From the IMG/VR virus record IMGVR_UViG_3300025011_000017: a stretch of DNA of 64,000 nucleotides; one strand, 5' to 3'. A model generated the notes under the pieces. The model did no database searches. It was not told where the DNA came from and saw only the letters and a list, made by a program, of their open reading frames with translations. The DNA is from a virus (lineage: Duplodnaviria > Heunggongvirae > Uroviricota > Caudoviricetes). Shown here one piece after another: positions 6,066 to 60,309 of the stretch; positions within the stretch are counted from its first letter, which is position 1, and every line of letters starts with the position of its first letter. The translations under genes were made by a program, and so were the position numbers.

Positions 6066-6096
6066 ATATTTAATGAAAGGAAGGTGGTTTTAAATT

Positions 6097-6654
6097 ATGT
6101 ATAAAAATGAAAAATGGAAACCTATTAAAAATTATGAAGGTCTTTATGAGATATCTAATTTTGGAAGAATCTTCAGTCTAAGAAGAAATAAAATGTTAAA
6201 ACATATTAAAAGTGGTGGTGTATTATTTGTTTCGTTATGTAATAAATTTTCAAAATATTATCGTGTATCACATTTAGTAGCGGAGACGTTTATACCAAAT
6301 ACGTATAATTCAAAATGTTTACGACATAAGGATGGAGATAATTTAAATGTTAATTTAGAGAATATTGAGTGGGTTGTAAATAAAAAATTGTTAAATATTA
6401 AGAAAGAAAAGGTTTGTAAATGGGTTATATTATGTAAACAATTAGGTATAACGGCATATACCATAGGGGAGATGATTGAAAAATTAAAACTAGAAGGATA
6501 CGAAAAAACACATAGGCAATCCATAAGTCTTTGCTTGAAGGGAAAACAAAAACATCATTATGGTCTAACATTTATAAATATAAAACCTGAAATATCAGAA
6601 AATATTCTTATAAATGATTTAATTAATAAATATTATGAGGATAAAGCGTCTTAA
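6097..6654 (+). CDS. HNH-family homing endonuclease (NUMOD4 / HNH_3 type)
   Basis: N-terminal WKPIKNYEGLYEISNFGRIFSL (NUMOD4) and RVSHLVAETFIPN (HNH_3-like); own promoter at 6037. Confidence 0.65.
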   Translation: MYKNEKWKPIKNYEGLYEISNFGRIFSLRRNKMLKHIKSGGVLFVSLCNKFSKYYRVSHLVAETFIPNTYNSKCLRHKDGDNLNVNLENIEWVVNKKLLNIKKEKVCKWVILCKQLGITAYTIGEMIEKLKLEGYEKTHRQSISLCLKGKQKHHYGLTFINIKPEISENILINDLINKYYEDKAS

Positions 6655-12559: not shown

Positions 12560-13084
12560 ATGAAGTACAAACCAACAATTGTAATAAGTGCGTTCCCTGC
12601 TTGTGGAAAGTCTTATATGTTTAATAACTATAATGGCAAACCATTTACTATGTTAGATAGTGATTCTAGTCAATTTAGTTGGATTAAAGATGTAAATGGA
12701 GAGAATACTAAAGAAAGAGATCCTAATTTCCCTGATAATTATATTAAACATATAAAAGATAATATTGGTAAAGTAGATATTATTTTTGTTAGTAGTCATG
12801 ATATTGTTCGAAAAACATTGAACGATAATGATATCAATTTCTTTATGGTATATCCATCTAAAAGTATGAAAGAGGAATGGATTAGACGTTTTAGGGAAAG
12901 AGGTAATGATGAGAATTTTATAGACTTTATTAGTGATAATTGGGATATTTTTATTGACGATATTCAAAGAGAAAATAAGTGCTTAAAGAAACAATTATCA
13001 GTTAATATTCCTTATATTACTAATGCGTATATTGCGAGTTGTTTTGATACTTGCTACCACTATAAATTTATAGAGGAGTTGTAA
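12560..13084 (+). CDS. P-loop NTPase/kinase-like hypothetical protein
   Basis: Deviant Walker A AFPACGKSY near N-terminus; RBS ACAAGGAG. Confidence 0.4.
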   Translation: MKYKPTIVISAFPACGKSYMFNNYNGKPFTMLDSDSSQFSWIKDVNGENTKERDPNFPDNYIKHIKDNIGKVDIIFVSSHDIVRKTLNDNDINFFMVYPSKSMKEEWIRRFRERGNDENFIDFISDNWDIFIDDIQRENKCLKKQLSVNIPYITNAYIASCFDTCYHYKFIEEL

Positions 13085-13086
13085 AG

Positions 13087-14412
13087 ATGGAAAAAATATA
13101 TTCTATTCTTAAAGAGATACAAGAAACATCAAGTAGAAATCAAAAAGAAAAAATATTAAAAAATAATTCTGAAAATCAATTACTTAAAGATATATTAAAA
13201 TTTGTATTTTCTCTTGAAGTAAAAACGGGAATTAAGCGTAAAAAATTAGAAAAAGAAGTTACGTCTGACCAACTAGTTGATATTGAAGGGTTTTATGGAC
13301 TTAGAGAATATATTATTAATAATGGAACTGGATCTGATAAAGTTATTGCCAACATACAGAAATTTTTATCTGAACAAACAGAAGATTTAAAAGATTTATA
13401 CACACGTATTATTCTTCAAGACTTACGATGTAATCTGAGTGAAAAAACTATCAATAGTGCTTTTGGATATGAATTTATATATATCCATAAATTAGAGAAA
13501 GGAGAAGTAGCAGAACCAAAACATCTTAAATTACTTGAAGAAAAAGAATTTGGTATATATAAAAAAATAGATGGATATAGAGCAGAGATTGTAGTAGGAT
13601 ATGACAAGATTAAAATAATGTCATCTGGAGGTGAATTATATAAAGAATTAATTGACATTGAAAGAGCGTTTTTAGATGCTAATTTACCTAAAGGAGTATT
13701 TGCATGTGAATTGTTAGCAATTGATCCTTCGGGACAAATGACACGAATGGAAATATTTAATAAAACTGGATCTATATTACGGAGAGATGGAATAAAAGTT
13801 GGAATTGAAGTTAATGTATTTAATTTTATTCCTGACGATGGATTTTTTAAGGGAGAGCATCCATTTTCTTGTCGTAGAAGAAAGGAATTAGCGAAACAAT
13901 TAGTTGATAAAATTAATTCTCCGTTTGTAAAAAATATTGATCCTCTATATATCGGAAAAGATTTGTCTCAAATTGATTATTGGTTTGAGAAGATGATTTT
14001 AGCTGAAGATGAAGGAATAATGGTTTTACCTCTAGATCAAAGGTATGTTGGGAAAAAATCGTATACACAAATGTTGAAGATTAAAACTGAAAATGAGTGC
14101 GACATTCGCGTAATTGGTTTTGAAAAAGGAGCTAAAGGTAAGGAGTTTGAGAATACTTTAGGAACTTTAATTTGTGACTTTAAGGGAAATCCAATTAGAG
14201 TAATGTGTGGATATAAAATAAAATATAACTCAAATAAATATGATGATCGAATGGTTAGGGATTATATTTGGACTCATCAAGAAGAACTGTTAGATAAAAT
14301 CGTGAAGGTGCGTTATATGGATATCTCCATAAACGACAGTGGTGGAACAGACTTGAGAATGGCAAGACTTATTGAATATCGTGATGATAAATCAGAATCA
14401 TCATATAACTAG
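13087..14412 (+). CDS. lig: ATP-dependent DNA ligase
   Basis: Motif I KKIDGYRAEI (KxDGxR), motif III FACELLAID, motif IV EGIMVLP, motif V MLKIK. Confidence 0.8.
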   Translation: MEKIYSILKEIQETSSRNQKEKILKNNSENQLLKDILKFVFSLEVKTGIKRKKLEKEVTSDQLVDIEGFYGLREYIINNGTGSDKVIANIQKFLSEQTEDLKDLYTRIILQDLRCNLSEKTINSAFGYEFIYIHKLEKGEVAEPKHLKLLEEKEFGIYKKIDGYRAEIVVGYDKIKIMSSGGELYKELIDIERAFLDANLPKGVFACELLAIDPSGQMTRMEIFNKTGSILRRDGIKVGIEVNVFNFIPDDGFFKGEHPFSCRRRKELAKQLVDKINSPFVKNIDPLYIGKDLSQIDYWFEKMILAEDEGIMVLPLDQRYVGKKSYTQMLKIKTENECDIRVIGFEKGAKGKEFENTLGTLICDFKGNPIRVMCGYKIKYNSNKYDDRMVRDYIWTHQEELLDKIVKVRYMDISINDSGGTDLRMARLIEYRDDKSESSYN

Positions 14413-14426
14413 AAAGGACGATATGA

Positions 14427-15203
14427 TTGAGAAAAGATTTAGCAAGCAATCAACTGAGTAAAATCGGCGAGATATGCGACCTGAACGGAAATATAATAGA
14501 GATTATCGAGTATTTAAGTACACATTGCGTAACCGTCAAATTTGAAGATGGTTACACAAATACAGGATCGTATAAAAGTTTCAAAAAAGGAGAGATAAGA
14601 AACCCAAATCCATACTTAAAAAGGTTTTATGGGGTTGGATATTTAGGAGAGGGAAACTATAAAACCTCTATAAATGGAGAAAAAACTCCACAATATTTAA
14701 AATGGTTTGCCATTTTCGTTAGGTGTTACAGCGAAAACCTTGCCTTAAAAGAACCAACATATGCAAACTGTGAAATATGTGAAGATTGGCATAACTTTCA
14801 AAATTTTGCAAAATGGTATGATGAAAATTATTACAGCATTGACGGCAGGGTAATGGAGTTAGATAAAGATATACTGGTAAAGGGAAATAAATTATATAGT
14901 CCTGACAATTGCGTATTCGTATCTAATGATATTAATAGTTTGTTTACTAAGCGTAAGAATAAACGAGGAGATTATCCATTAGGAGTATCTAGGAATGAAG
15001 GATGTGATAGTTACAAATCGCAATGCAACAATGAAGGGAAAAGAGTATATCTAGGGAGTTACAGCACACCTCAACAGGCATTTTTAGTATATAAAACATT
15101 TAAAGAACAGGTCATTAAAAAAACTGCTGATAAATATATTAATCAGATACCTAAAAGGTTGTATGATGCATTATATGCATATCAAGTAGAAATGAACGAC
15201 TGA
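14427..15203 (+). CDS. HNH/AP2-domain homing endonuclease
   Basis: AP2-like RNEGCDSYKSQCNNEGKRVYLGSYSTPQQAF; free-standing gene between ligase and a remnant of the ligase 3' end. Confidence 0.6.
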   Translation: MRKDLASNQLSKIGEICDLNGNIIEIIEYLSTHCVTVKFEDGYTNTGSYKSFKKGEIRNPNPYLKRFYGVGYLGEGNYKTSINGEKTPQYLKWFAIFVRCYSENLALKEPTYANCEICEDWHNFQNFAKWYDENYYSIDGRVMELDKDILVKGNKLYSPDNCVFVSNDINSLFTKRKNKRGDYPLGVSRNEGCDSYKSQCNNEGKRVYLGSYSTPQQAFLVYKTFKEQVIKKTADKYINQIPKRLYDALYAYQVEMND

Positions 15204-15216
15204 ACAGGTAAGTGAT

Positions 15217-15291
15217 AATGGTGAAATTGATTTAAGAATAGCTAGATTAGTTTGTTATAGAGATGATAAGATAATTGAAAGCTATAATTAA
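15217..15291 (+). pseudogene. remnant or duplicate of the ligase 3' end (NGEIDLRIARLVCYRDDKIIESYN*)
   Basis: 24-codon frame about 65% identical to ligase C-terminus SGGTDLRMARLIEYRDDKSESSYN*; lies immediately after the HNH gene. Confidence 0.55.
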
Positions 15292-15304
15292 GAAAGGATG
15301 AATA

Positions 15305-15760
15305 ATAATAATTAAAATAGTTGATGGAGATATTTTACAAGCATCGGAAAAACTGGTGGTGCATCAGGTTAACTGTATGGGAGTTATGGGTGGTGGCATC
15401 GCATTACAAATTAGAAATCAGCTTCCTAAAGTTTACAATGAATATAAAAGATTATGTAGTAATACTGATCCAAAACAATTATTAGGAACAATTCAATGCG
15501 TAGAAGATGATTTTGGCAGAGTATTTGTTAATTTATTCGGACAATTAAATTATGGTAGAGATAAACAATATACTGATTATGTGGCTTTAAGAAGAGGTTT
15601 GTTAAATGTTTATAATATAGCAAATCAGTATAATGTGTCAGTTGCAATTCCATTTAATATTGGTTGCGGTCTTGCGGGTGGAGATTGGAATGAAGTTTAT
15701 AAAATGATAGAAGAAATTTTCGGAGATTATGATGTAACTTTATATAGATTGGAAGTATAG
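15305..15760 (+). CDS. Macro domain protein (ADP-ribose binding/hydrolase)
   Basis: VDGDILQASEKLVVHQVNCMGVMGGGIALQI matches macro GDIT...VNAAN...GGGV motifs; conserved N-terminus lies upstream of the first canonical start (GTG 15356); start near 15305-15311 (ATA/ATT) or ATG 15298 with +1 shift in an (AAT)4 run. Confidence 0.6.
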   Translation: MIIKIVDGDILQASEKLVVHQVNCMGVMGGGIALQIRNQLPKVYNEYKRLCSNTDPKQLLGTIQCVEDDFGRVFVNLFGQLNYGRDKQYTDYVALRRGLLNVYNIANQYNVSVAIPFNIGCGLAGGDWNEVYKMIEEIFGDYDVTLYRLEV

Positions 15761-15773
15761 AAAGGAGTAACAA

Positions 15774-15941
15774 GTGGATAATAATGTTATAGGATCGTTA
15801 TATTTAGTTAAAGTTGATTCAAATGAAAATAATAATAAATATTACAAAATGATTCCAAATGGCAATGGTACATTTACAACTCAAAATGGAAGAATTGGAG
15901 TAGATCATTTTCAAACCACTACTTATCCTATTAGCAGATGA
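15774..15941 (+). CDS. WGR-domain N-terminal fragment of PARP-like protein (terminated by in-frame TGA)
   Basis: GTG with AAAGGAG RBS; NKYYKMIPNGNGTFTTQNGRIG (WGR core); remainder of WGR (KLKRKGY) continues in the same frame after TGA 15939-15941. Confidence 0.55.
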   Translation: MDNNVIGSLYLVKVDSNENNNKYYKMIPNGNGTFTTQNGRIGVDHFQTTTYPISR

Positions 15942-15962
15942 AATGAAAAATTAAATGAAAAA

Positions 15963-16988
15963 TTGAAGAGAAAAGGATACACAGACCAAACTAGATTAGT
16001 TGCAGAAATTACATCTTCTTCTAAAAATAAAGAATATTTAGATATTGAAAATTCTTCTATCTCAGCAATTGTCGCAAGATTACAAGCTATGGCTAAACAA
16101 GCTATTGCAGACAACTATACAATATCTTCAAATAAAGTAACTCAGACAATGATAGATGAAGCTCAAATAACATTAAATAATTTAATGACAGCAGATTCAA
16201 TCGAAGCGTTTAACAAAATATTAGTTGAGTTATTTCAAATTATTCCTCGTAAAATGAAAAAAGTAAAAGATAATTTAGCTAAAATAGATAAAGATTTTGG
16301 AGAAATTATTCAAAAAGAACAAGATTTGCTTGATGTGATGAAGGGTCAGGTGGTTATTACATCTGTACAAGATGAAACTGAGCAAGAAATAGTTAATAAT
16401 CAAACTATATTAGACGCTTTAGGATTAAGATTTGAAGAGATTACACAAGAAGAAGAGAGGATGATTAAGAGAGAACTTGAGGATATTAGCAATAGATATT
16501 ATCAAGCATGGAAAGTGATTAATATTAGAACTCAGGAGAGATTTAATAAATTTATTATCAATGAAAAAATTGAAGACAACAGGTTATTATTTCATGGTAC
16601 TCGTTCAGAGAACGTATGGAGTATAATTAACTCTGGATTAGTTTTAAGACCTTCCGCTAAAATTACAGGAAAAATGTTTGGATATGGAATTTATTTTGCT
16701 CCAAAAGCCCAAAAATCATTAGGATATACGTCTATTTCAGGGTCTAGATGGTCTAAAGGAAACGATAAAACTGGATTTATGGCATTATTTGACGTTGCTT
16801 ATGGAAAACCATACGATGTACACTCATTTGATAATAAGTATTATAAGTTTAACTATGAAGAATTGCAAAAAGCTAGTAAGGGTAGTAATTGTTTACATGC
16901 ACACAAAGGCAAGATGTTATTTAATGATGAGATCATAGTATACAAAGAAAATCAAATGACCATAAAGTATTTGATAGAATTAAAATAA
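15963..16988 (+). CDS. PARP-like ADP-ribosyltransferase catalytic region (helical domain + ART; H-Y-E triad present)
   Basis: [39 protein letters not shown] close to PARP1 [48 protein letters not shown] matches the catalytic-Glu motif; same frame as the WGR ORF. Confidence 0.75.
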   Translation: [341 protein letters not shown]

Positions 16989-18019: not shown

Positions 18020-18034
18020 AGGAGAGATTTATTA

Positions 18035-18340
18035 ATGATTAATCAAGCACAACAAACAGAGGTAAAAGATATCGTCTATAAAAAAGGTAGACAAAAATAT
18101 TCAGAAAGAACTAATTTACTTCCCAATCATGTAAAAGATGGTTCATTTACAATTAAAGAGAAGAAAGAGCGTATTATTCATTCGAATAACAGAACCATTG
18201 TAATTCTTAACGATGGCACAAAAGGTATTGCTAAATGTATGCCAACCGACACCTACGACAAACTTAAAGGAGTTAAAATTGCATATCTTCGAGCAAAAAT
18301 TGAATCGCTTCAAAAAGAACTTCAGGAACTTTGTAAATAA
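18035..18340 (+). CDS. hypothetical protein; paralog of the gene at 48012
   Basis: C-terminal ILNDGTKGIAKCMPTDTYDKLKGVKIAYLRAKI vs ILDDGSKGVAKLNPKDTYNGEIGYGVAYFRAKI. Confidence 0.5.
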   Translation: MINQAQQTEVKDIVYKKGRQKYSERTNLLPNHVKDGSFTIKEKKERIIHSNNRTIVILNDGTKGIAKCMPTDTYDKLKGVKIAYLRAKIESLQKELQELCK

Positions 18341-24057: not shown

Positions 24058-24405
24058 GTGTGTAATTATATTAATGCTGACGGAGATTGTTTATTGGAAT
24101 ACGTAGAATGTCTTAGAGATACTAGTGAATCATGCGATATTGCAATTGATTATCAGATAAAAAGAGTAATAAATAATAAATTCGCTATGGAATATAAAAG
24201 TGACTGGACAAGAAAGCAAAAGATGACTTGTCATAAAAATTATTGTAAATTTAATGTTTTAAAAATATGCACAAAAGAATATATCACTCTAAATGAAGAC
24301 GGAAAATGTTCAGAAGAACCACCTTTAAATTTAATGGCATGGCATAAAATAATTCCATCACCGTTAAAACCAATGCAAAGAGAACGAAGATTAACGTATC
24401 ATTAA
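24058..24405 (+). CDS. Cys-rich hypothetical protein
   Basis: GTG start; 115 aa. Confidence 0.4.
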   Translation: MCNYINADGDCLLEYVECLRDTSESCDIAIDYQIKRVINNKFAMEYKSDWTRKQKMTCHKNYCKFNVLKICTKEYITLNEDGKCSEEPPLNLMAWHKIIPSPLKPMQRERRLTYH

Positions 24406-24425
24406 AATATAATAATGGAGGTAGA

Positions 24426-24788
24426 ATGATGAAATCAAGAGTTTCGAGTCAACGTCAACAAATTTTAACTATGCTTAGAGAAGCAGGGAGTAAAGGAGTG
24501 ACCAACACACAGTTACAAACTGTGGGTGTATGTTGGCATAATTGTACAAGAGGTTTGTATGATATGGGATACAAAATAACTAACGAACATATTGGTAATG
24601 GTATATATAAATATGTTTTAGTTAAGGAGCCAGAAAAAATCATTACAAATAGACCAAAAGCAGGAACTATCTTATTTGATGCTATTATTGGTAAAATTAC
24701 TGCTAATAAATTAATAGATATTCTTAAAGAATTTAATTTAACTATTGCCAGAAAGCAACATTATTATAAAGAGAGGAGTTGTAAGTAA
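24426..24788 (+). CDS. putative winged-helix DNA-binding protein (paralog 1 of tandem pair)
   Basis: QRQQILTMLREAGSKGVTNTQLQ...LYDMGYKI; paralogous to next gene. Confidence 0.45.
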   Translation: MMKSRVSSQRQQILTMLREAGSKGVTNTQLQTVGVCWHNCTRGLYDMGYKITNEHIGNGIYKYVLVKEPEKIITNRPKAGTILFDAIIGKITANKLIDILKEFNLTIARKQHYYKERSCK

Positions 24789-25183
24789 TGTTTTTTGTAA
24801 CCCCAGAAATACAAAAGAAAATTGCAAGTCAACGAGAGCAAATTTTAAATGCTTTAAGAATTGCAGGTAAGTATGGAATGTTTAATATCGATCTTCAAGA
24901 ATTAGGTATGCATTGGCATACACGTATTAGAGAATTATATCGTATGGGGTATAAAATAGAGTGTGAATTTATTGGTAGTGGATTATATAAATATATATTA
25001 ATTAAAGAACCAATAAAGGCATTTCCTTTAAAATCAGAAAAAGGAATAGACATATTGGTAGATATTATTAATACAAAATATAAGGGAAAGGTGTCTATTA
25101 AAGACTTGCAGGAGATATTTAAATCTGAAAAATTACAATGTAATCGTAAGGTGGTTTTTAATACGATAAAAGCACAAGCATAA
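24788..25183 (+). CDS. putative winged-helix DNA-binding protein (paralog 2)
   Basis: QREQILNALRIAGKYGMFNIDLQ...LYRMGYKI; TAATG coupling. Confidence 0.45.
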   Translation: MFFVTPEIQKKIASQREQILNALRIAGKYGMFNIDLQELGMHWHTRIRELYRMGYKIECEFIGSGLYKYILIKEPIKAFPLKSEKGIDILVDIINTKYKGKVSIKDLQEIFKSEKLQCNRKVVFNTIKAQA

Positions 25184-34006: not shown

Positions 34007-35098
34007 ATGATAGTTAATGAAAAAAATAACATGGTGACTATGATCGACAGGAAAAATAGATTTGTCGAGAAGTTTAATCGTGAGACAGGTTTCTATATTA
34101 GATCTGGAGTAATGGACAAAGATGGCAATGACACTGGTGTAGATCCATTTATGAGACAGTTTCCCTCGCTACTGGATATTGGAATTATGGGACATTGCAA
34201 GAATGCTTTAAGATGTACAGTTGGTTGCTATCAAGGAAAAATGAATAAACCTAATATGTCTCTTGAAAACTTTAAGAAAATAGTTGATCAATCTAAGGGA
34301 AAAGTATTTGAAATGGCATTAGGAGGAAGTGGTAGTCCAAATGAACACGAAGACTTTATCGAAATTCTCAAATATGCTAGAGGAAACGGTATTGTGCCTA
34401 ATTACACTACCTCTGGAATTGATTTAACTGACGAGCAAATTAAAGCTACAAAAGATTTCTGCGGTGCAGTTGCCGTGAGCCATTATGATCAACCTTACAC
34501 TTATGACGCAATCAATAGATTTATTGAAGCAGGATGTAAAACTAATATACATTTTGTCTTAGGAAATGATTCCATTGATGATGCAATTAGAAGGCTTAAA
34601 GAAAATGATTTTACCAAAGGCATTAATGCTGTAATATTTCTTATGTATAAACCAGTTGGTTGTGTAAAAGAAGGAAATGTTTTAAAATTTGATGATCCAA
34701 GAGTTGCAGAATTTTATAATTTAATTGACACTGGAGAGTTTGATTTTAAAGTTGGTTTAGATGCCTGTCATTTACCTGCTTTAATGAATTTCTCAAAAAA
34801 TATAAGTGTTAATTCAGTAACTCCTTGTGACGGGGCGAGTTTTTCTGGATACGTGACTCCTGATTTTAAAATGTTACCTTGTTCATTTGATACAGTTACA
34901 TTAAAATATGCTGTAGATTTAAATGAATATACAATCCAAGAAGCATGGGATAGTGATAAATTTGAGTTATTCAGAAACTATCATAAAAATAGTTGTTCAG
35001 GATGTGCAAATCAAAACGATTGTAGAGGTGGATGTGTCTTGACACAAGAAATAAATAGATTATGTAATAGAAAGGAGAAAGACATTTATGAAATTTAA
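34007..35098 (+). CDS. radical SAM / SPASM-domain enzyme (non-canonical CX5CX3C cluster motif)
   Basis: GIMGHCKNALRCTVGCYQG, glycine-rich FEMALGGSGSPNEHED (GGEP-like), NYTTSG; C-terminal CSGCANQNDCRGGCV SPASM/twitch signature plus extra Cys (CDGASFSG...LPCSFD); start ATG 34007 (track GTG 33995). Confidence 0.6.
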   Translation: MIVNEKNNMVTMIDRKNRFVEKFNRETGFYIRSGVMDKDGNDTGVDPFMRQFPSLLDIGIMGHCKNALRCTVGCYQGKMNKPNMSLENFKKIVDQSKGKVFEMALGGSGSPNEHEDFIEILKYARGNGIVPNYTTSGIDLTDEQIKATKDFCGAVAVSHYDQPYTYDAINRFIEAGCKTNIHFVLGNDSIDDAIRRLKENDFTKGINAVIFLMYKPVGCVKEGNVLKFDDPRVAEFYNLIDTGEFDFKVGLDACHLPALMNFSKNISVNSVTPCDGASFSGYVTPDFKMLPCSFDTVTLKYAVDLNEYTIQEAWDSDKFELFRNYHKNSCSGCANQNDCRGGCVLTQEINRLCNRKEKDIYEI

Positions 35099-35432
35099 GA
35101 GTGATTATACTACTAATTCTAGTAGCACATGTTTTACTATTACTAATAAATCTAACAAAGACAAAACTTTGGTTGATTTTGTGACAGAAAATCCACAATT
35201 GGTTAAAGAATTTGTTGATGAATATCGTGGTGGAGATGATAAATATTTTACCCAAGGAAGAATGTTAATTGATGCAGAAAAAAGAAGTGAAATATTTCCT
35301 GCTAATTCATCTATAAATAGTGGCTATGGAGATGAAGATGGAGATGTATTAGGACATGTATTTGACTATATTCTTAGAGATGGTGGTAAGTCCGAAAGTT
35401 TTGAATGGGAATTCAAGGAATATTGGAGGTAA
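35088..35432 (+). CDS. paralog 1 of TNSSSS-motif small protein family (114 aa)
   Basis: MKFKSDYTTNSSSTCFTI...; start overlaps rSAM gene end by 11 nt. Confidence 0.5.
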   Translation: MKFKSDYTTNSSSTCFTITNKSNKDKTLVDFVTENPQLVKEFVDEYRGGDDKYFTQGRMLIDAEKRSEIFPANSSINSGYGDEDGDVLGHVFDYILRDGGKSESFEWEFKEYWR

Positions 35433-35434
35433 AA

Positions 35435-35719
35435 ATGAAGATTAAAACTGATTATACTACTAACTCGTCTAGCTCATCATTTATTTGTACTAAATGTAAA
35501 AATTTAATTCATGATTTTGATAACGATGCAGATTATGAAAGGGAAATGTGCGATTCTTGTTATCAAGATTTAAGTCCAGAAGATAGAAAAAGGTTGGATA
35601 ATGGCGAAGATATTAATTATAATAAAGTGGAAAGTTATTTGGAGTTTTTATGTCAAAAAATGATTTATGATAAGAAAGAAATAATGAATAATTATAAAGA
35701 GTGGAGGAAGTCACATTGA
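35435..35719 (+). CDS. paralog 2 of TNSSSS-motif family (94 aa; CxxC...CxxC)
   Basis: GGAGGTAAAAATG; MKIKTDYTTNSSSSSFICTKCKN...CDSCYQ. Confidence 0.5.
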   Translation: MKIKTDYTTNSSSSSFICTKCKNLIHDFDNDADYEREMCDSCYQDLSPEDRKRLDNGEDINYNKVESYLEFLCQKMIYDKKEIMNNYKEWRKSH

Positions 35720-36132
35720 AAACACGGTTAGATTTTGTAACAAATAGCTCAAGCAGTTCTTTTATTGCAGTTTTTGCAAGAATTTCAGATAAATCAAAAG
35801 CACAACCAATTATCGAAAAATATGACTATGAGGTTTATACAGGCGAAGAACTTTTAATAGCAATGGGGAATAGAATATGGAGTAAATTATTTGAATGGGA
35901 TTGGGCAGGAGTAGACCTTACTCCTTCAGAAGAATATGTGCAAAAGAATATCACTTCTGAATTCATCTTTTTTAGTGACAATGAAGATATTGATGAATCG
36001 GATGGAGAACCTAATTATGATATTGATACAGATGATTTTTCAGAAGAAACAATGAAAGCAATTGATGCAGTAAATAAAGAAAATGGATTTACTGATATCA
36101 AATCAGGATTTGGTGCAGGGAGGGATGGTTAA
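35716..36132 (+). CDS. paralog 3 of TNSSSS-motif family (138 aa; acidic C-terminal tail)
   Basis: TTG after GGAGGAAG; LKTRLDFVTNSSSSSFIAVF...; overlaps paralog 2 stop. Confidence 0.5.
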   Translation: MKTRLDFVTNSSSSSFIAVFARISDKSKAQPIIEKYDYEVYTGEELLIAMGNRIWSKLFEWDWAGVDLTPSEEYVQKNITSEFIFFSDNEDIDESDGEPNYDIDTDDFSEETMKAIDAVNKENGFTDIKSGFGAGRDG

Positions 36133-36492
36133 TTGAAGATACGCTTAGATTATATTACAAATAGTTCTAGTTCATCCTATACTTGTATTATTTGTGACAA
36201 TACGGAGTCTGGAATGAATGTAGGAATGTCTGAATTAGGAATGATTCAATGTGAGAACGGTCATACGATGTGTGAAGATCATGCAACAGGAGAAATTGAT
36301 GATACGTATGATTTTCCTGCTGAAAGTTGTCCAGTATGCACATTTGATAATCTTATAGATAAAGATATTTCTAAGTATCTTTTGAAAAAGTATAATATAA
36401 ATTTATCCGACCTTAAAACAGAAATGAAGACAATTTTTACTAATTACAATGAATTCGAGCAATATATTATAGTTGACAAAAGTATAAAATAA
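36133..36492 (+). CDS. paralog 4 of TNSSSS-motif family (119 aa; Cys/His-rich)
   Basis: TTG after GGGAGGGATGG; LKIRLDYITNSSSSSYTCIICDN...CPVC. Confidence 0.5.
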   Translation: MKIRLDYITNSSSSSYTCIICDNTESGMNVGMSELGMIQCENGHTMCEDHATGEIDDTYDFPAESCPVCTFDNLIDKDISKYLLKKYNINLSDLKTEMKTIFTNYNEFEQYIIVDKSIK

Positions 36493-42825: not shown

Positions 42826-43140
42826 ATGGGAAGGAAAGCTACAAATTTAGAAGGTATGGTGTTTGGAAGACTTAAAGTTTTATATAGAGATATCACAAAA
42901 ACAAAAGGAGTTTATTGGATATGTCAATGTTCATGTGAAAATAAAACCATAAAATCTATTCATGCAGGAAGTTTAGTTCCTAGTAAATCTGTTAAAGGCA
43001 CACAAAGTTGCGGTTGTTTTGCAAAAGAAAATATGAGTAAAGTAAAGAAAAAATACAATAAGTATGATCTATCGGGAGAATATAGTTACGATAATAGTAT
43101 GAAATTAAAGAAGGTGGTAAATAAATTGCAAGTATCATAA
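42826..43140 (+). CDS. truncated paralog of the N-terminal Zn-binding domain of the HNH/AP2 endonucleases
   Basis: MGRKATNLEGMVFGRLKVLYRDITKTKGVYWICQCSCENKTI...SCGCF parallels N-termini of 58295 and 59602 genes but lacks AP2/HNH part. Confidence 0.5.
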   Translation: MGRKATNLEGMVFGRLKVLYRDITKTKGVYWICQCSCENKTIKSIHAGSLVPSKSVKGTQSCGCFAKENMSKVKKKYNKYDLSGEYSYDNSMKLKKVVNKLQVS

Positions 43141-48011: not shown

Positions 48012-48353
48012 ATGAAAGGATTGTTAAATATTAATAAGCAACCTCAAAAAGTAATCCAATATGAAATACAACCATATGATGTGAACGCTATAATTTCATA
48101 TAATGGTCAAGTAATTAAACGACAAACGATAAGGAAGGATGTAAAAAAGTGTAAATCTATTCATAACGGTACTACAACAATAGTTATTCTAGATGATGGA
48201 TCTAAAGGAGTGGCTAAACTTAATCCTAAAGATACCTATAATGGAGAAATTGGATATGGTGTTGCATATTTTCGAGCAAAAATTAAACAAGCCGAAAAAC
48301 AATTAGAACTTTTGTATAGTGGTAAATTTATTAATGAAAAAATTGAATACTAA
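48012..48353 (+). CDS. hypothetical protein; paralog of the gene at 18035
   Basis: Shared C-terminal motif (see 18035 entry). Confidence 0.5.
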   Translation: MKGLLNINKQPQKVIQYEIQPYDVNAIISYNGQVIKRQTIRKDVKKCKSIHNGTTTIVILDDGSKGVAKLNPKDTYNGEIGYGVAYFRAKIKQAEKQLELLYSGKFINEKIEY

Positions 48354-57572: not shown

Positions 57573-58298
57573 ATGTATTTGGAAATTAAAGTTACTTTGT
57601 TAAATAAACAGGAATTGATAGATAATAACGCATTTTCACAAATTGGGGATTTTGCAAGAATTGGAACTGGAAGTATGAATGATTCTGAGGTAATTGGAAA
57701 ACATTGTGTTGAAAGTTCACATGGATCGCCGCAGAGAGTACCTAGATTTATCTTTCAGATAGAAGGTGTGAGTAGAACGGAAACCCATCAACACGTTCGT
57801 CATAATGTAGGAATCGCTCATAATCAACGAAGTCAAAGGTATTGCATAGAAGATGGGTTCGATTATTATAAACCAAAGGAGTTTAATGGTAAAAAATATT
57901 TAATTCTTTTAGAGCAAAAGGATGAAGATACTATGTTGGAATTATCTTATGATGATATGATGCAATTAATTAGGAAATTTTATATAAAATCAATAGAAGA
58001 TAATATTTCTCCAGATGAAGCGAGAGAAATATTAGCAAATGCAGTTGGATCTAAAATTAATTCTTATTTTACTTATCAAGCTTTAATTCATTTTTGTAAT
58101 GAACGTTTGTGTTCAAGAGCTAGTAGACAGATTAGAGAAGTTGCTAGACAAATGGTAGAAGAAGTTAAATCAGTTGATCCTAAAGCATCTGAGTATCTTG
58201 TACCTAAGTGCCATTTTAATGCTTTAGGATACTGTCCAGAAGATAAAAGGAAATCCTGTGGACTTAGATCGCTAAAGGCCGATGTGATACTTGAATGA
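57573..58298 (+). CDS. thyX: flavin-dependent thymidylate synthase
   Basis: ThyX signature RHNVGIAHNQRSQRY (RHRxxSxxxxSxRY). Confidence 0.8.
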   Translation: MYLEIKVTLLNKQELIDNNAFSQIGDFARIGTGSMNDSEVIGKHCVESSHGSPQRVPRFIFQIEGVSRTETHQHVRHNVGIAHNQRSQRYCIEDGFDYYKPKEFNGKKYLILLEQKDEDTMLELSYDDMMQLIRKFYIKSIEDNISPDEAREILANAVGSKINSYFTYQALIHFCNERLCSRASRQIREVARQMVEEVKSVDPKASEYLVPKCHFNALGYCPEDKRKSCGLRSLKADVILE

Positions 58299-58984
58299 AA
58301 ATGAAAGATATAACTGGAGAAACATATGGTAAATGGAAAGTTTTATATGAAGATATTCCAAGAAAAAATGGAACTTACTGGATGTGTCAATGTTCATGTT
58401 ACAAAAAAACAATTAGATCTGTATGCGGCAGTAGTTTAATATCAGGACGTAGTAACAGTTGTGGCTGTTTTAGGAAGCATAATATATTTATTGAAATAGG
58501 AGACTTTTACTATGTAATTTCGAGTAATAATATAGGATTTTTGATAGATAAAGATGATTATGATAAAGCTTTAAGGTATAATTGGTATGTAGGTGATCGC
58601 GGATATGTTGTGTCAACTGTAAAAAAAAGTAAAGGTAAGGGTAAGTGGAAATTGCATAGGATATTAATGGATTGTCTAGAAGATGATGTGACAGATAAAG
58701 TGGTAGATCATATTAATGGTAATAAATTAAATAATACAAAATATAATTTAAGATTATGTACTCAGGTACAAAATAATCGTAATATGCGATTATCTAAAAA
58801 TAATACAAGTGGAGTTTCTGGAGTTTATCTACTACAGTCTGGAAAATGGTCAGCCCGTATATCGTATAATGGGAAGAAATTTAGTCTAGGATCATTTTCT
58901 ACATTTGAAGAAGCTGTAATAGTTCGCAAAGAAGCTGAAAATAAATATTTTGGAGAATTTAGATATGTAGGAAGTGATAGATAA
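58295..58984 (+). CDS. HNH/AP2-domain homing endonuclease
   Basis: N-terminal Zn module CQCSC...SCGCF, HNH region VDHINGNKLNN, AP2 KWSARISYNGKKFSLGSFSTFEEA; ATGA overlap with thyX. Confidence 0.65.
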   Translation: MKMKDITGETYGKWKVLYEDIPRKNGTYWMCQCSCYKKTIRSVCGSSLISGRSNSCGCFRKHNIFIEIGDFYYVISSNNIGFLIDKDDYDKALRYNWYVGDRGYVVSTVKKSKGKGKWKLHRILMDCLEDDVTDKVVDHINGNKLNNTKYNLRLCTQVQNNRNMRLSKNNTSGVSGVYLLQSGKWSARISYNGKKFSLGSFSTFEEAVIVRKEAENKYFGEFRYVGSDR

Positions 58985-59547: not shown

Positions 59548-59601
59548 TAGGTGTAGGGAAAATCTCTACATCTAATAATAATTGTATAAGTATATAATAA
59601 T

Positions 59602-60309
59602 GTGTGGAAGGGGTTTAAATTGGGAAAATTTATTGATTTAACAGGTAAAATTTTTGGTAAACTATTAGTCTTGGAAAGAGCAGGTTCAAATAAGTCAAAA
59701 GGAGCCTTATGGAAATGTAGATGTTCTTGTTTAGATAATACTATTGTTACTGTAAGTTCTAACTCATTGATTAGTGGAAATACTACGTCCTGTGGGTGCT
59801 TTAAGAAAAAGAGGGTATCCGAAACTCATAGGAAATATAACACATATATACTGACTGGAATATATGGAGTAGGACGTACAGTTGAGGGTGAAGAGTTTTA
59901 CTTTGATTTAGAAGATTATGATAGAATAAATAAATATTATTGGAGCATTAATCGTAATGGATACGTATATAATGAATTAAATAAAATATTTTTGCATAAA
60001 TATGTTGTTAATAGTCCTAAAAATATGCAAGTTGATCATATCAATCATAATATTAAAGACTGTAGAAAAGAATTTTTGAGGATTTGTAGTAATCAACAAA
60101 ATAATTTTAATAAAGATAAATATAAAAACAATACCAGTGGTTTTAAAGGAGCGTATTTCGATAAGAGATGTGGAAAATGGTTTGCTTCAATTAAAATAAA
60201 CTATAAGAACAAATTTTTAGGGTATTCTAATACTCCTGAAGAAGCAAACGAATTACGCAAAAAAGCTGATATAAAATATTTCGGAGAATTCAGGTACGTA
60301 GAAGTATGA
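59602..60309 (+). CDS. HNH/AP2-domain homing endonuclease
   Basis: CRCSC...SCGCF, VDHINHN, AP2 KWFASIKINYKNKFLGYSNTPEEA; probable start TTG 59620 (GGAAGGGG RBS). Confidence 0.65.
   Translation: MWKGFKLGKFIDLTGKIFGKLLVLERAGSNKSKGALWKCRCSCLDNTIVTVSSNSLISGNTTSCGCFKKKRVSETHRKYNTYILTGIYGVGRTVEGEEFYFDLEDYDRINKYYWSINRNGYVYNELNKIFLHKYVVNSPKNMQVDHINHNIKDCRKEFLRICSNQQNNFNKDKYKNNTSGFKGAYFDKRCGKWFASIKINYKNKFLGYSNTPEEANELRKKADIKYFGEFRYVEV

Follow-up and report, generated by a model that had tools for sequence, protein, structure and literature searches.

A free-standing homing-endonuclease gene probably entered a phage DNA ligase locus together with a foreign ligase tail and displaced the native one

In fungal mitochondria the elements known as mORFs form hybrid genes, for example in atp6 of Allomyces macrogynus and in atp6, atp9, cox2 and nad3 of Glomus sp., and their layout comprises the gene body, an inserted foreign C-terminus, an endonuclease open reading frame (ORF) and, downstream, the native C*-terminus (PMC3630166). 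In these genes the native copy is 91-98% identical to that of a sister taxon, and the inserted and native copies are 64-81% identical to each other (PMC3630166); C-terminal duplications have also been noted in another study (PMC6279837). Here we consider a locus of the same layout in a 64,000-nucleotide stretch of DNA from a virus of the Caudoviricetes (IMG/VR record IMGVR_UViG_3300025011_000017; the whole stretch is hereafter called the window), in which the gene for an ATP-dependent DNA ligase is followed by a free-standing gene for an endonuclease of the HNH/AP2 type and then by a second, diverged copy of the ligase C-terminal coding sequence. The arrangement is well known in fungal mitochondria and rarely pointed out in phages, and the locus is a clean and instructive phage example, not a new principle.

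As in the mORFs, the native remnant lies near the sister genome (87% identity here), the two copies are far apart from each other (about 60% here) with the protein sequence largely conserved, and horizontal transfer is concluded for the same reason. The differences are that the host is a double-stranded DNA phage and not a mitochondrion, that the enzyme is of the HNH/AP2 type and not LAGLIDADG or GIY-YIG, that the endonuclease gene stands apart, with a ribosome-binding site and TTG start of its own, rather than being fused in frame to the host gene, and that expression was tested in the mitochondrial cases, whereas the present locus is known from sequence alone. A further comparison is provided by bacteriophage T4, in which the cut made in an endonuclease-free allele is resected and repaired from the donor with co-conversion of the flanks, and for which one-sided homing with illegitimate joins at microhomologies has been described (PMC2988022). 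One-sided illegitimate repair of this type would leave the recipient sequence to the right of the break as a duplicate, which is exactly the kind of junction considered here. Like the free-standing Seg and Mob homing endonucleases of T4 (PMC2988022), the gene in the window lies between conserved genes, is present in some relatives only, presumably cuts within the conserved gene beside it and is passed on with a stretch of the donor's flanking sequence. Unlike the window, the T4 cases are clean replacements that leave behind no second copy of the adjacent gene's end, they involve a different protein family, and their cleavage sites were mapped experimentally, while the target in the window is predicted from sequence. 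Similarly, in the available passages on ICP1 and other phages an endonuclease gene beside an essential DNA-metabolism gene marks an abrupt change in relatedness, and several endonuclease families are clustered at the same locus; the enzymes there are T5orf172 and IPA-HNH, and gene-end duplication is not among the topics of those passages (PMC10448857). A literature search of incomplete coverage found no phage case with a retained, displaced gene end.

We regard it as probable that the HNH/AP2-type homing-endonuclease gene entered this phage as a single block together with the final 42 codons of a donor ligase, the native tail being displaced. The block would have replaced native ligase codons 401-411 and pushed codons 412-441 (15201-15291) downstream as an untranslated remnant, still joined to the original ribosome-binding site of the next gene, which encodes a macro domain. 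The ligase would then combine a resident body with a foreign tail, and this hybrid is presumably functional. The evidence that carries this account lies in the anatomy of the locus, the identity of the native copy, a left breakpoint inside the ligase gene, the foreign composition of the block, its presence and absence in relatives and the recency of the event. The elements of the locus are as follows, relatives being designated by L-numbered contigs, of which L023 carries the closest ligase:

13087-14412, + strand: whole ATP-dependent DNA ligase ORF, 441 amino acids, with the C-terminus ...SGGTDLRMARLIEYRDDKSESSYN before the stop
13087..14286, + strand: resident part of the ligase, codons 1-400, recognised by Pfam, PHROG, identity to L023 and a G+C content at third codon positions (GC3) of 0.15
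14287..14412, + strand: copy A, the ligase tail concluded to be imported, codons 401-441 plus stop, the present and presumably functional 3' end of the ligase
14413..14426, + strand: spacer of 14 nt with the ribosome-binding site AAAGGA for the endonuclease gene, read directly from the sequence
14427..15203, + strand: free-standing endonuclease gene, 258 amino acids, TTG start, with an N-terminal beta domain, a putative His-Me-finger-like core and a C-terminal AP2 DNA-binding domain
15199..15203, + strand: right-hand junction, the endonuclease stop TGA abutting or overlapping the native ligase fragment
15201..15291, + strand: copy B, concluded to be the displaced native ligase tail, corresponding to codons 412-441 plus stop, a pseudogene fragment
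15292..15307, + strand: native ligase-macro intergenic spacer with the ribosome-binding site GAAAGGA, colinear with L001, L015 and L023
15308..15760, + strand: macro-domain gene, the usual downstream neighbour of the ligase (Pfam Macro, E = 6e-8)

The identity of the ligase gene is given by matches to Pfam DNA_ligase_A_M (E = 8e-9) and PHROG 114 (E = 7e-66), and the endonuclease gene has its AAAGGA motif 8 nt ahead of the TTG start. A first-pass annotation of the window had placed the end of the ligase ORF at 14412, a free-standing gene at 14427-15203 and, at 15217-15291, a sequence encoding a ligase C-terminus without a start codon (NGEIDLRIARLVCYRDDKIIESYN, then stop). Both the ligase end and the gene are there as claimed, and the downstream frame, which differs from that of the preceding ORF, does lack ATG, GTG and TTG and is closed upstream by a TGA at 15193-15195.

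Among relatives of the window the conserved gene order is ligase, macro and WGR-PARP. Relatives with ligases 67-84% identical were found at 15 IMG/VR loci and 31 JGI metagenome loci, several contigs being common to both collections, and 31 ligases were obtained from a large protein database. The deposited phages of INPHARED include no close relative, the best ligase match being 35% identical at the amino acid level, and DNA similarity to that collection is limited to the endonuclease, which is 66-77% identical to HNH/AP2 genes of Bacillus and Vibrio phages. The closest ligase, P0002, is 82% identical in amino acids and is encoded on L023, a 1.8-kb groundwater contig. On L023 the site is empty, the ribosome-binding site and start of the macro gene coming immediately after the ligase stop, and this answers the comparison with endonuclease-free relatives that the first-pass annotation had proposed as a check. 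The ligase likewise runs directly into the macro gene in L001, L015 and most of about 45 relatives, the endonuclease family being present at the locus in the window and L054, and a second ligase tail of this clade is absent from all relatives. The arrangement of the window recurs: each of four proteins of the region is found at six contig places, where its neighbours are mostly the same proteins, and one of these places, L019, has 100% identity with the window over 11.3 kb. Looking up four window proteins by exact match, which could have brought up an endonuclease-free twin of this phage, gave only the same arrangement, and exact scans of IMG/VR and the JGI metagenomes with 29-32-nt sequence shared by copy B and L023 gave 0 matches.

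These recurrences bear on the notion that two strain variants of a ligase 3' end were simply stitched into one contig. The window does come from a metagenome assembly, and its two tails are versions of one and the same sequence. Since the arrangement recurs across contigs, such an artefact is very unlikely; moreover, with an identity of about 60% the copies are too far apart for an assembler to mix up, and clean junctions and an intact endonuclease ORF point the same way, so that we assign this explanation next to no probability.

One question then is which of the two tails belongs to the resident ligase. Compared with L023, codons 1-400 of the ligase body differ at 186 of 1200 positions (15.5%, that is 84.5% DNA identity), and the sequence just before the breakpoint is nearly the same in both, with 87 of 90 positions identical and 3 mismatches over 14197-14286. 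From 14287 the identity drops sharply to about 60%, codons 401-441 having 48 mismatches in 123 positions (39%; Fisher p = 3e-9 against the body). When the two tails are set against that of L023 over the same positions, copy B has 11 mismatches in 87 and copy A has 38 in 87 (Fisher p = 8e-6), and over 90 nt copy B is 87% identical to the L023 tail. In terms of protein sequence, comparison with P0002 gives 23 of 26 residues for copy B and 18 of 26 for copy A, the match of copy B reaching upstream through EQVSD to about 15201. Copy B is also colinear with the native ligase-macro spacer of L001, L015 and L023. Base composition divides the locus along the same lines: GC3 is 0.15 in the ligase body and 0.10 in copy B, as against 0.35 in copy A and 0.28 in the endonuclease gene, the last being the highest of 47 long ORFs (mean 0.191, standard deviation 0.030), and copy A together with the endonuclease gene differs from the ligase body at p = 1e-5. 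The identity break at 14287, the likeness of copy B to L023 and the raised GC3 of copy A and the endonuclease gene together indicate that copy A and the endonuclease gene are the imported block and that copy B is the displaced native tail. We conclude that the block extends from 14287 to about 15200, roughly 915 bp as judged from these alignments, and that native codons 401-411, which are missing from the window, were lost.

Copy A, for its part, has the marks of a ligase tail that has been at work elsewhere. Its nearest counterparts are the tails of the clade formed by L014, L025 and L029, to which it is 72-74% identical in nucleotides, with a proportion of nonsynonymous differences (pN) of 0.14 and a proportion of synonymous differences (pS) of about 0.8, and this combination of low pN and high pS argues that it evolved as a functioning ligase tail in another lineage. 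All the ligase residues conserved in the family are present in copy A (DLR..RL..YRDDK....YN), and the hybrid ligase reads through copy A in frame to a normal stop, copy B following after the endonuclease gene in the same orientation.

The first-pass annotation had interpreted the locus as a footprint of homing-endonuclease gene mobility, a reading that the empty site in relatives and the imported tract beside the gene support, and had left two versions of it standing side by side. The version in which the native 3' end was displaced and a new one supplied is borne out, copy A being foreign and copy B original (p = 8e-6), and the version in which the downstream fragment came from the donor is contradicted. 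This contradicted version, with copy A native and the endonuclease gene arriving together with copy B as a fragment of a donor ligase, can draw on the fact that copy A is contiguous with the ligase and completes a 441-residue protein, and on the GIY-YIG gene of L002, described below, which does carry a foreign ligase tail on its downstream side. We nevertheless consider it highly improbable, since it is copy B that matches L023 as well as the ligase body does, copy A reaching only about 58%; the break in identity lies inside the ligase at 14287 and not at its stop codon; the raised GC3 is common to copy A and the endonuclease gene, copy B having the low value of the resident sequence; and copy B is colinear with the native spacer and the macro gene.

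When compared with each other, the two tails are related and strongly diverged. The estimate of roughly 65% identity in the first-pass annotation was fair, 14 of the last 20 residues agreeing by direct reading, and tblastn of the ligase against the window places the second tail at 15208-15288 with 59% identity over 27 amino acids (E = 2e-4). The nucleotide alignment proposed there as a check yields a local score of 38, compared with 16.0 +/- 2.5 in 1000 shuffles (maximum 30), and in nucleotide local alignment copy B is the best match to the ligase tail on either strand of the window, chunks overlapping or adjoining the query aside. Ungapped, the nucleotide identity of the copies is 57-61% over the last 60-90 nt, and the similarity runs beyond the stop codons into the ribosome-binding sites (TAG AAAGGA in copy A, TAA GAAAGGA in copy B); a donor ligase with a tail of the A type would be expected to end in ...RMARLIEYRDDKSESSYN. 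The homology of copy B begins at about 15201/15202 (EQVSDNGEIDLR...), 15 nt upstream of the 15217 given previously, an extension visible only through the comparison with L023.

The differences between the copies are mostly synonymous and nearly saturated (pS 0.73, pN 0.38), which indicates that the tails diverged as working genes in different lineages and not in place. Two direct-orientation copies about 880 bp apart could in principle have arisen by local tandem duplication of the ligase 3' end, with later divergence and insertion of an unrelated endonuclease gene between them. Such an origin is, if anything, still harder to credit than a native copy A: the pS between the copies exceeds that between this phage and L023 (0.43-0.44), copy B has diverged from L023 no further than has the ligase body, the copies are more than threefold apart in GC3, and a duplication that predates the split from L023 should be visible in L023, where one tail alone precedes the macro gene.

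The same comparison provides an indication of timing. Between copy B and L023 pS is 0.44 and pN 0.08, and between the ligase body and L023 the values are 0.43 and 0.087; copy B, moreover, contains neither a frameshift nor a stop. Because the divergence of copy B equals that of a functional ligase body and its frame is intact, it appears to have been under selection for almost all of its history, which makes the insertion recent. The earlier description of the insertion as relatively recent is therefore supported qualitatively, that is, relative to the split from the L023 lineage and on the strength of only 90 nt.

How the block was joined to the resident sequence can be followed at both ends. 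We infer the nuclease activity, the position of the target and the repair pathway, and the most likely course would be an endonuclease-triggered break repair that relied on homology at the ligase side. A co-infecting donor phage would have expressed the endonuclease, and a cut or nick by this enzyme near codons 400-412 of the endonuclease-free ligase allele would have left a break whose left end invaded the homologous donor ligase, with the left crossover at about 14287; repair synthesis would then have copied the donor ligase tail and the endonuclease gene. On the right, the window reads ..GAC TGA ACAGGTAAGTGAT and L023 reads ..GAT GAG CAA GTA AGT GAT, homology to L023 being clear from about 15201 onward and absent before. 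A microhomology of TGA at this junction is possible, the endonuclease stop overlapping the GA-TGA-G of the empty allele. The right junction may accordingly have been formed by an illegitimate, microhomology-based join directly after the endonuclease stop, as in 'one-sided' break repair, or else by two-sided homing of a composite cassette, 'replacement tail + endonuclease gene', ahead of a leftover tail. On either route the predicted target would be split and its left half recoded, such that the hybrid allele should be immune to further cutting.

A different way of accounting for both junctions would be a group I intron that contains the endonuclease gene, with copy B as the real final exon of the ligase. 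Introns do encode many phage HNH genes, and joining codon 411 (14319) to 15202 would restore an in-frame ligase with a tail of the B type. For all that, the intron is an extremely improbable explanation: a search of 13000-16000 on either strand gave no Rfam match even at E <= 1; the ligase-tail coding sequence of 126 nt, the spacer of 14 nt and the ORF of 777 nt take up the 915-nt insert, so that a ribozyme core would have no space; and the upstream ORF already ends in a complete, conserved ligase C-terminus with a stop.

The proposed break repair requires the inserted gene to encode a nuclease. The gene belongs to a family of 3806 homologues at E <= 1e-20, of which the nearest is 55% identical, and members are labelled 'HNH endonuclease' or 'AP2 domain' in PHROGs and by GenBank annotators. 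It is intact and full length, ends at the normal C-terminus of the family and retains all invariant family residues; like it, its two closest homologues start with TTG and MRQDL. Searches of Pfam (even at E <= 10, and including the HNH, HNH_3 and AP2 models), NCBIfam and PDB sequences returned nothing useful. In 81 aligned members D146-K147-D148 is invariant and places a lysine at the position of the catalytic histidine of His-Me-finger enzymes, at the end of the first strand; the loop residue Tyr157, between strands, is also invariant, as is Asn170, and N154 is nearly so, the position of the conserved asparagine suggesting the helix metal ligand of that fold. Nearly invariant, at 90% or more, are also three cysteines and one histidine (C100, C115, H122, C162). 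Among nuclease folds the best match is PacI, a His-less enzyme, and the C-terminal domain has the AP2/ERF fold, with a three-stranded sheet packed on a helix. PacI lacks the catalytic histidine and uses a loop tyrosine instead, and is an active His-less His-Me-finger enzyme (PMC5714182). Compared with the HNH-AP2 endonucleases and the His-Me finger superfamily (PMC5714182), the present family differs in having no sequence match to Pfam HNH, HNH_3 or AP2 and in the replacement of histidine by lysine. By analogy, PacI-like chemistry with a role for Tyr157 is plausible, and the family may comprise PacI-like, His-less nucleases with lysine or tyrosine chemistry; the protein is likely to be a nuclease.

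It is at this point that a passive origin of the block has to be weighed, in which illegitimate or modular recombination brought in the tail and the gene together and the endonuclease, inactive or a mere DNA-binding protein, played no part. The lack of the canonical catalytic histidine throughout the family (invariant K147), the absence of any Pfam or NCBIfam nuclease match, the mosaic nature of phage genomes and the presence of another diverged patch in the ligase would all be compatible with it. We hold it to be unlikely, since across about 45 related ligase loci the junction has repeatedly received endonuclease genes, and from several families; the imported tract runs from within the conserved gene next door precisely to the stop codon of the endonuclease; the predicted fold resembles that of PacI, an active enzyme without histidine, the loop tyrosine being invariant here; and strong conservation over 3806 homologues argues for a selected activity. 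In a separate matter, the sequence ATGATT after copy A was considered as a remnant of a donor macro start and the idea was dropped, because the closest endonuclease homologues elsewhere share the GA-TTG-AGA start region, which makes the sequence part of the endonuclease cassette.

The recurrence of endonuclease genes extends beyond the window, and the ligase-macro-PARP module is a hotspot for them. In L054 a gene of the same family, 47% identical, lies between ligase and macro without any duplication. Two other HNH types occupy the ligase-macro junction in L003/L035/L053 and in L048, GIY-YIG genes do so in L002/L032 and in L029, and L014/L031 have a GIY-YIG-like motif after the ligase. The two homologues nearest to the window's endonuclease, at 55% and 53% identity, are found in ligase/macro/PARP modules of phages with a different ligase clade, where the order is ligase-macro-endonuclease-PARP in L056 and ligase-endonuclease-PARP in L058, the macro gene being absent from the latter. 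Two of the GIY-YIG genes carry footprints of their own. In L029 (4342-5757 for the whole footprint) the GIY-YIG ORF opens with the first 17 or so codons of a family-typical macro gene (MIKIVDGDILQASENVI) and is followed by a complete macro gene with a strongly diverged 5' end (MIIIKDENILKATED); this is the mirror image of the footprint in the window, the native macro 5' end having been displaced and fused to the GIY-YIG gene. In L002 (2181-3380; the same as L032) a complete ligase is directly followed by a GIY-YIG ORF of 399 amino acids, the last 95 or so of which belong to a ligase OB domain of another clade, with 48% identity to P0031 (E = 2e-21). Three independent footprints at the hotspot, in the ligase 3' end of the window, the macro 5' end of L029 and the OB tail of L002, suggest that this could be a recurrent strategy and not a one-off accident of repair. 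We therefore raise, as a tentative and rather doubtful generalisation, that a gene-end cassette consisting of a 'replacement gene end + endonuclease gene' is a third route, besides introns and inteins, into important phage genes; by analogy with the mitochondrial mORFs, such a cassette may destroy the target site yet keep the host gene whole.

Several points weigh against our account of the locus. No donor was found, in that no collection searched contains an A-type ligase tail or an endonuclease more than 55% identical, and a back-translated MARLIEYRDDK pattern gave 0 matches in IMG/VR and GTDB genomes. Breakpoint analysis could draw on L023 and L028 alone, the 15 IMG/VR relatives being too divergent (about 70-80%) to inform it, and L023 is a single 1.8-kb contig only about 85% identical, which limits the resolution of the breakpoints to a few codons at best. 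Between the ligase of the window and those of its two closest relatives, L023 and L028, there is also a second stretch, at about 13987-14211, in which identity falls to 58-78%, and some 90 nt of near-identity lie between it and the imported tail. Patchy conversion or an older exchange may have produced this stretch, it makes the ligase a mosaic beyond a single tract, and the left edge of the import could be patchier than assumed. The whole endonuclease family, furthermore, has lysine for the catalytic histidine and no sequence match in Pfam, NCBIfam or PDB, such that nuclease activity is a prediction, and the putative target site follows only from the positions of the breakpoints.

The genes downstream of the insertion have peculiarities of their own. 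The macro gene has no ATG, GTG or TTG at the conserved start (15298-15320), the window reading ATA ATT AAA ATA GTT where L001, L003, L023 and L029 have ATG ATT AAA ATA GTT and L015 has ATT; either a rare start codon is in use or the gene is poorly translated. A scan for promoters and terminators near the insert found nothing above the shuffled expectation. The gene that follows is:

15774-16988: WGR-PARP gene, after the macro gene, with a TGA at 15939-15941

This in-frame TGA, the only one in the gene, stands at the site of a tryptophan of the WGR domain that is conserved in most relatives examined (ISR*NEK in the window, SQWNKK or SKWES in relatives); it is also present in contig L019 (ERZ27254726), the one identical to the window over 11.3 kb, and the PARP gene is likewise split in relatives L005 and L006. 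Global recoding of TGA was considered as an explanation and rejected: the window, with 29.5% G+C, is 89% coding under the standard code, and the TGA at 15939 is the sole one well inside a long + strand reading frame, the others lying within a few codons of an end. It would thus represent a nonsense mutation, a pseudogene or a read-through site.

The phage is rich in endonuclease genes, other HNH-type genes of the window lying at 6094-6651, 58295-58981 and 59590-60306. The last two are paralogues 40% identical to each other, and a 104-amino-acid N-terminal fragment of an HNH-type gene at 42826-43137 is 43-46% identical to them. Further paralogues comprise a tandem pair at 24348-25180 (44% identical; PHROG 21071, function unknown) and two short ORFs 30 kb apart, at 18020-18337 and 48012-48350, which are 51% identical, and at 35088-36489 there is a run of small ORFs with a common N-terminal motif of about 20 residues.

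The locus has consequences for annotation and for experiment. It warns that of two copies of a gene end the one within the gene, and not the stray fragment, can be the foreign one, and it predicts a target for the endonuclease at about codons 400-412 of ligase alleles of the B type, which are free of the endonuclease. The more than 3800 homologues annotated as 'HNH endonuclease' without the catalytic histidine make up a large and odd family. Above all, the window holds a clean natural record of what was probably a single homing event in an uncultured phage, in which the donor DNA, the breakpoint, the junction and the displaced native sequence can all still be read. An essential replication gene has been turned into a hybrid of two lineages, presumably without loss of function, and the route of gene-end replacement familiar from fungal mitochondria appears to operate in phages too.

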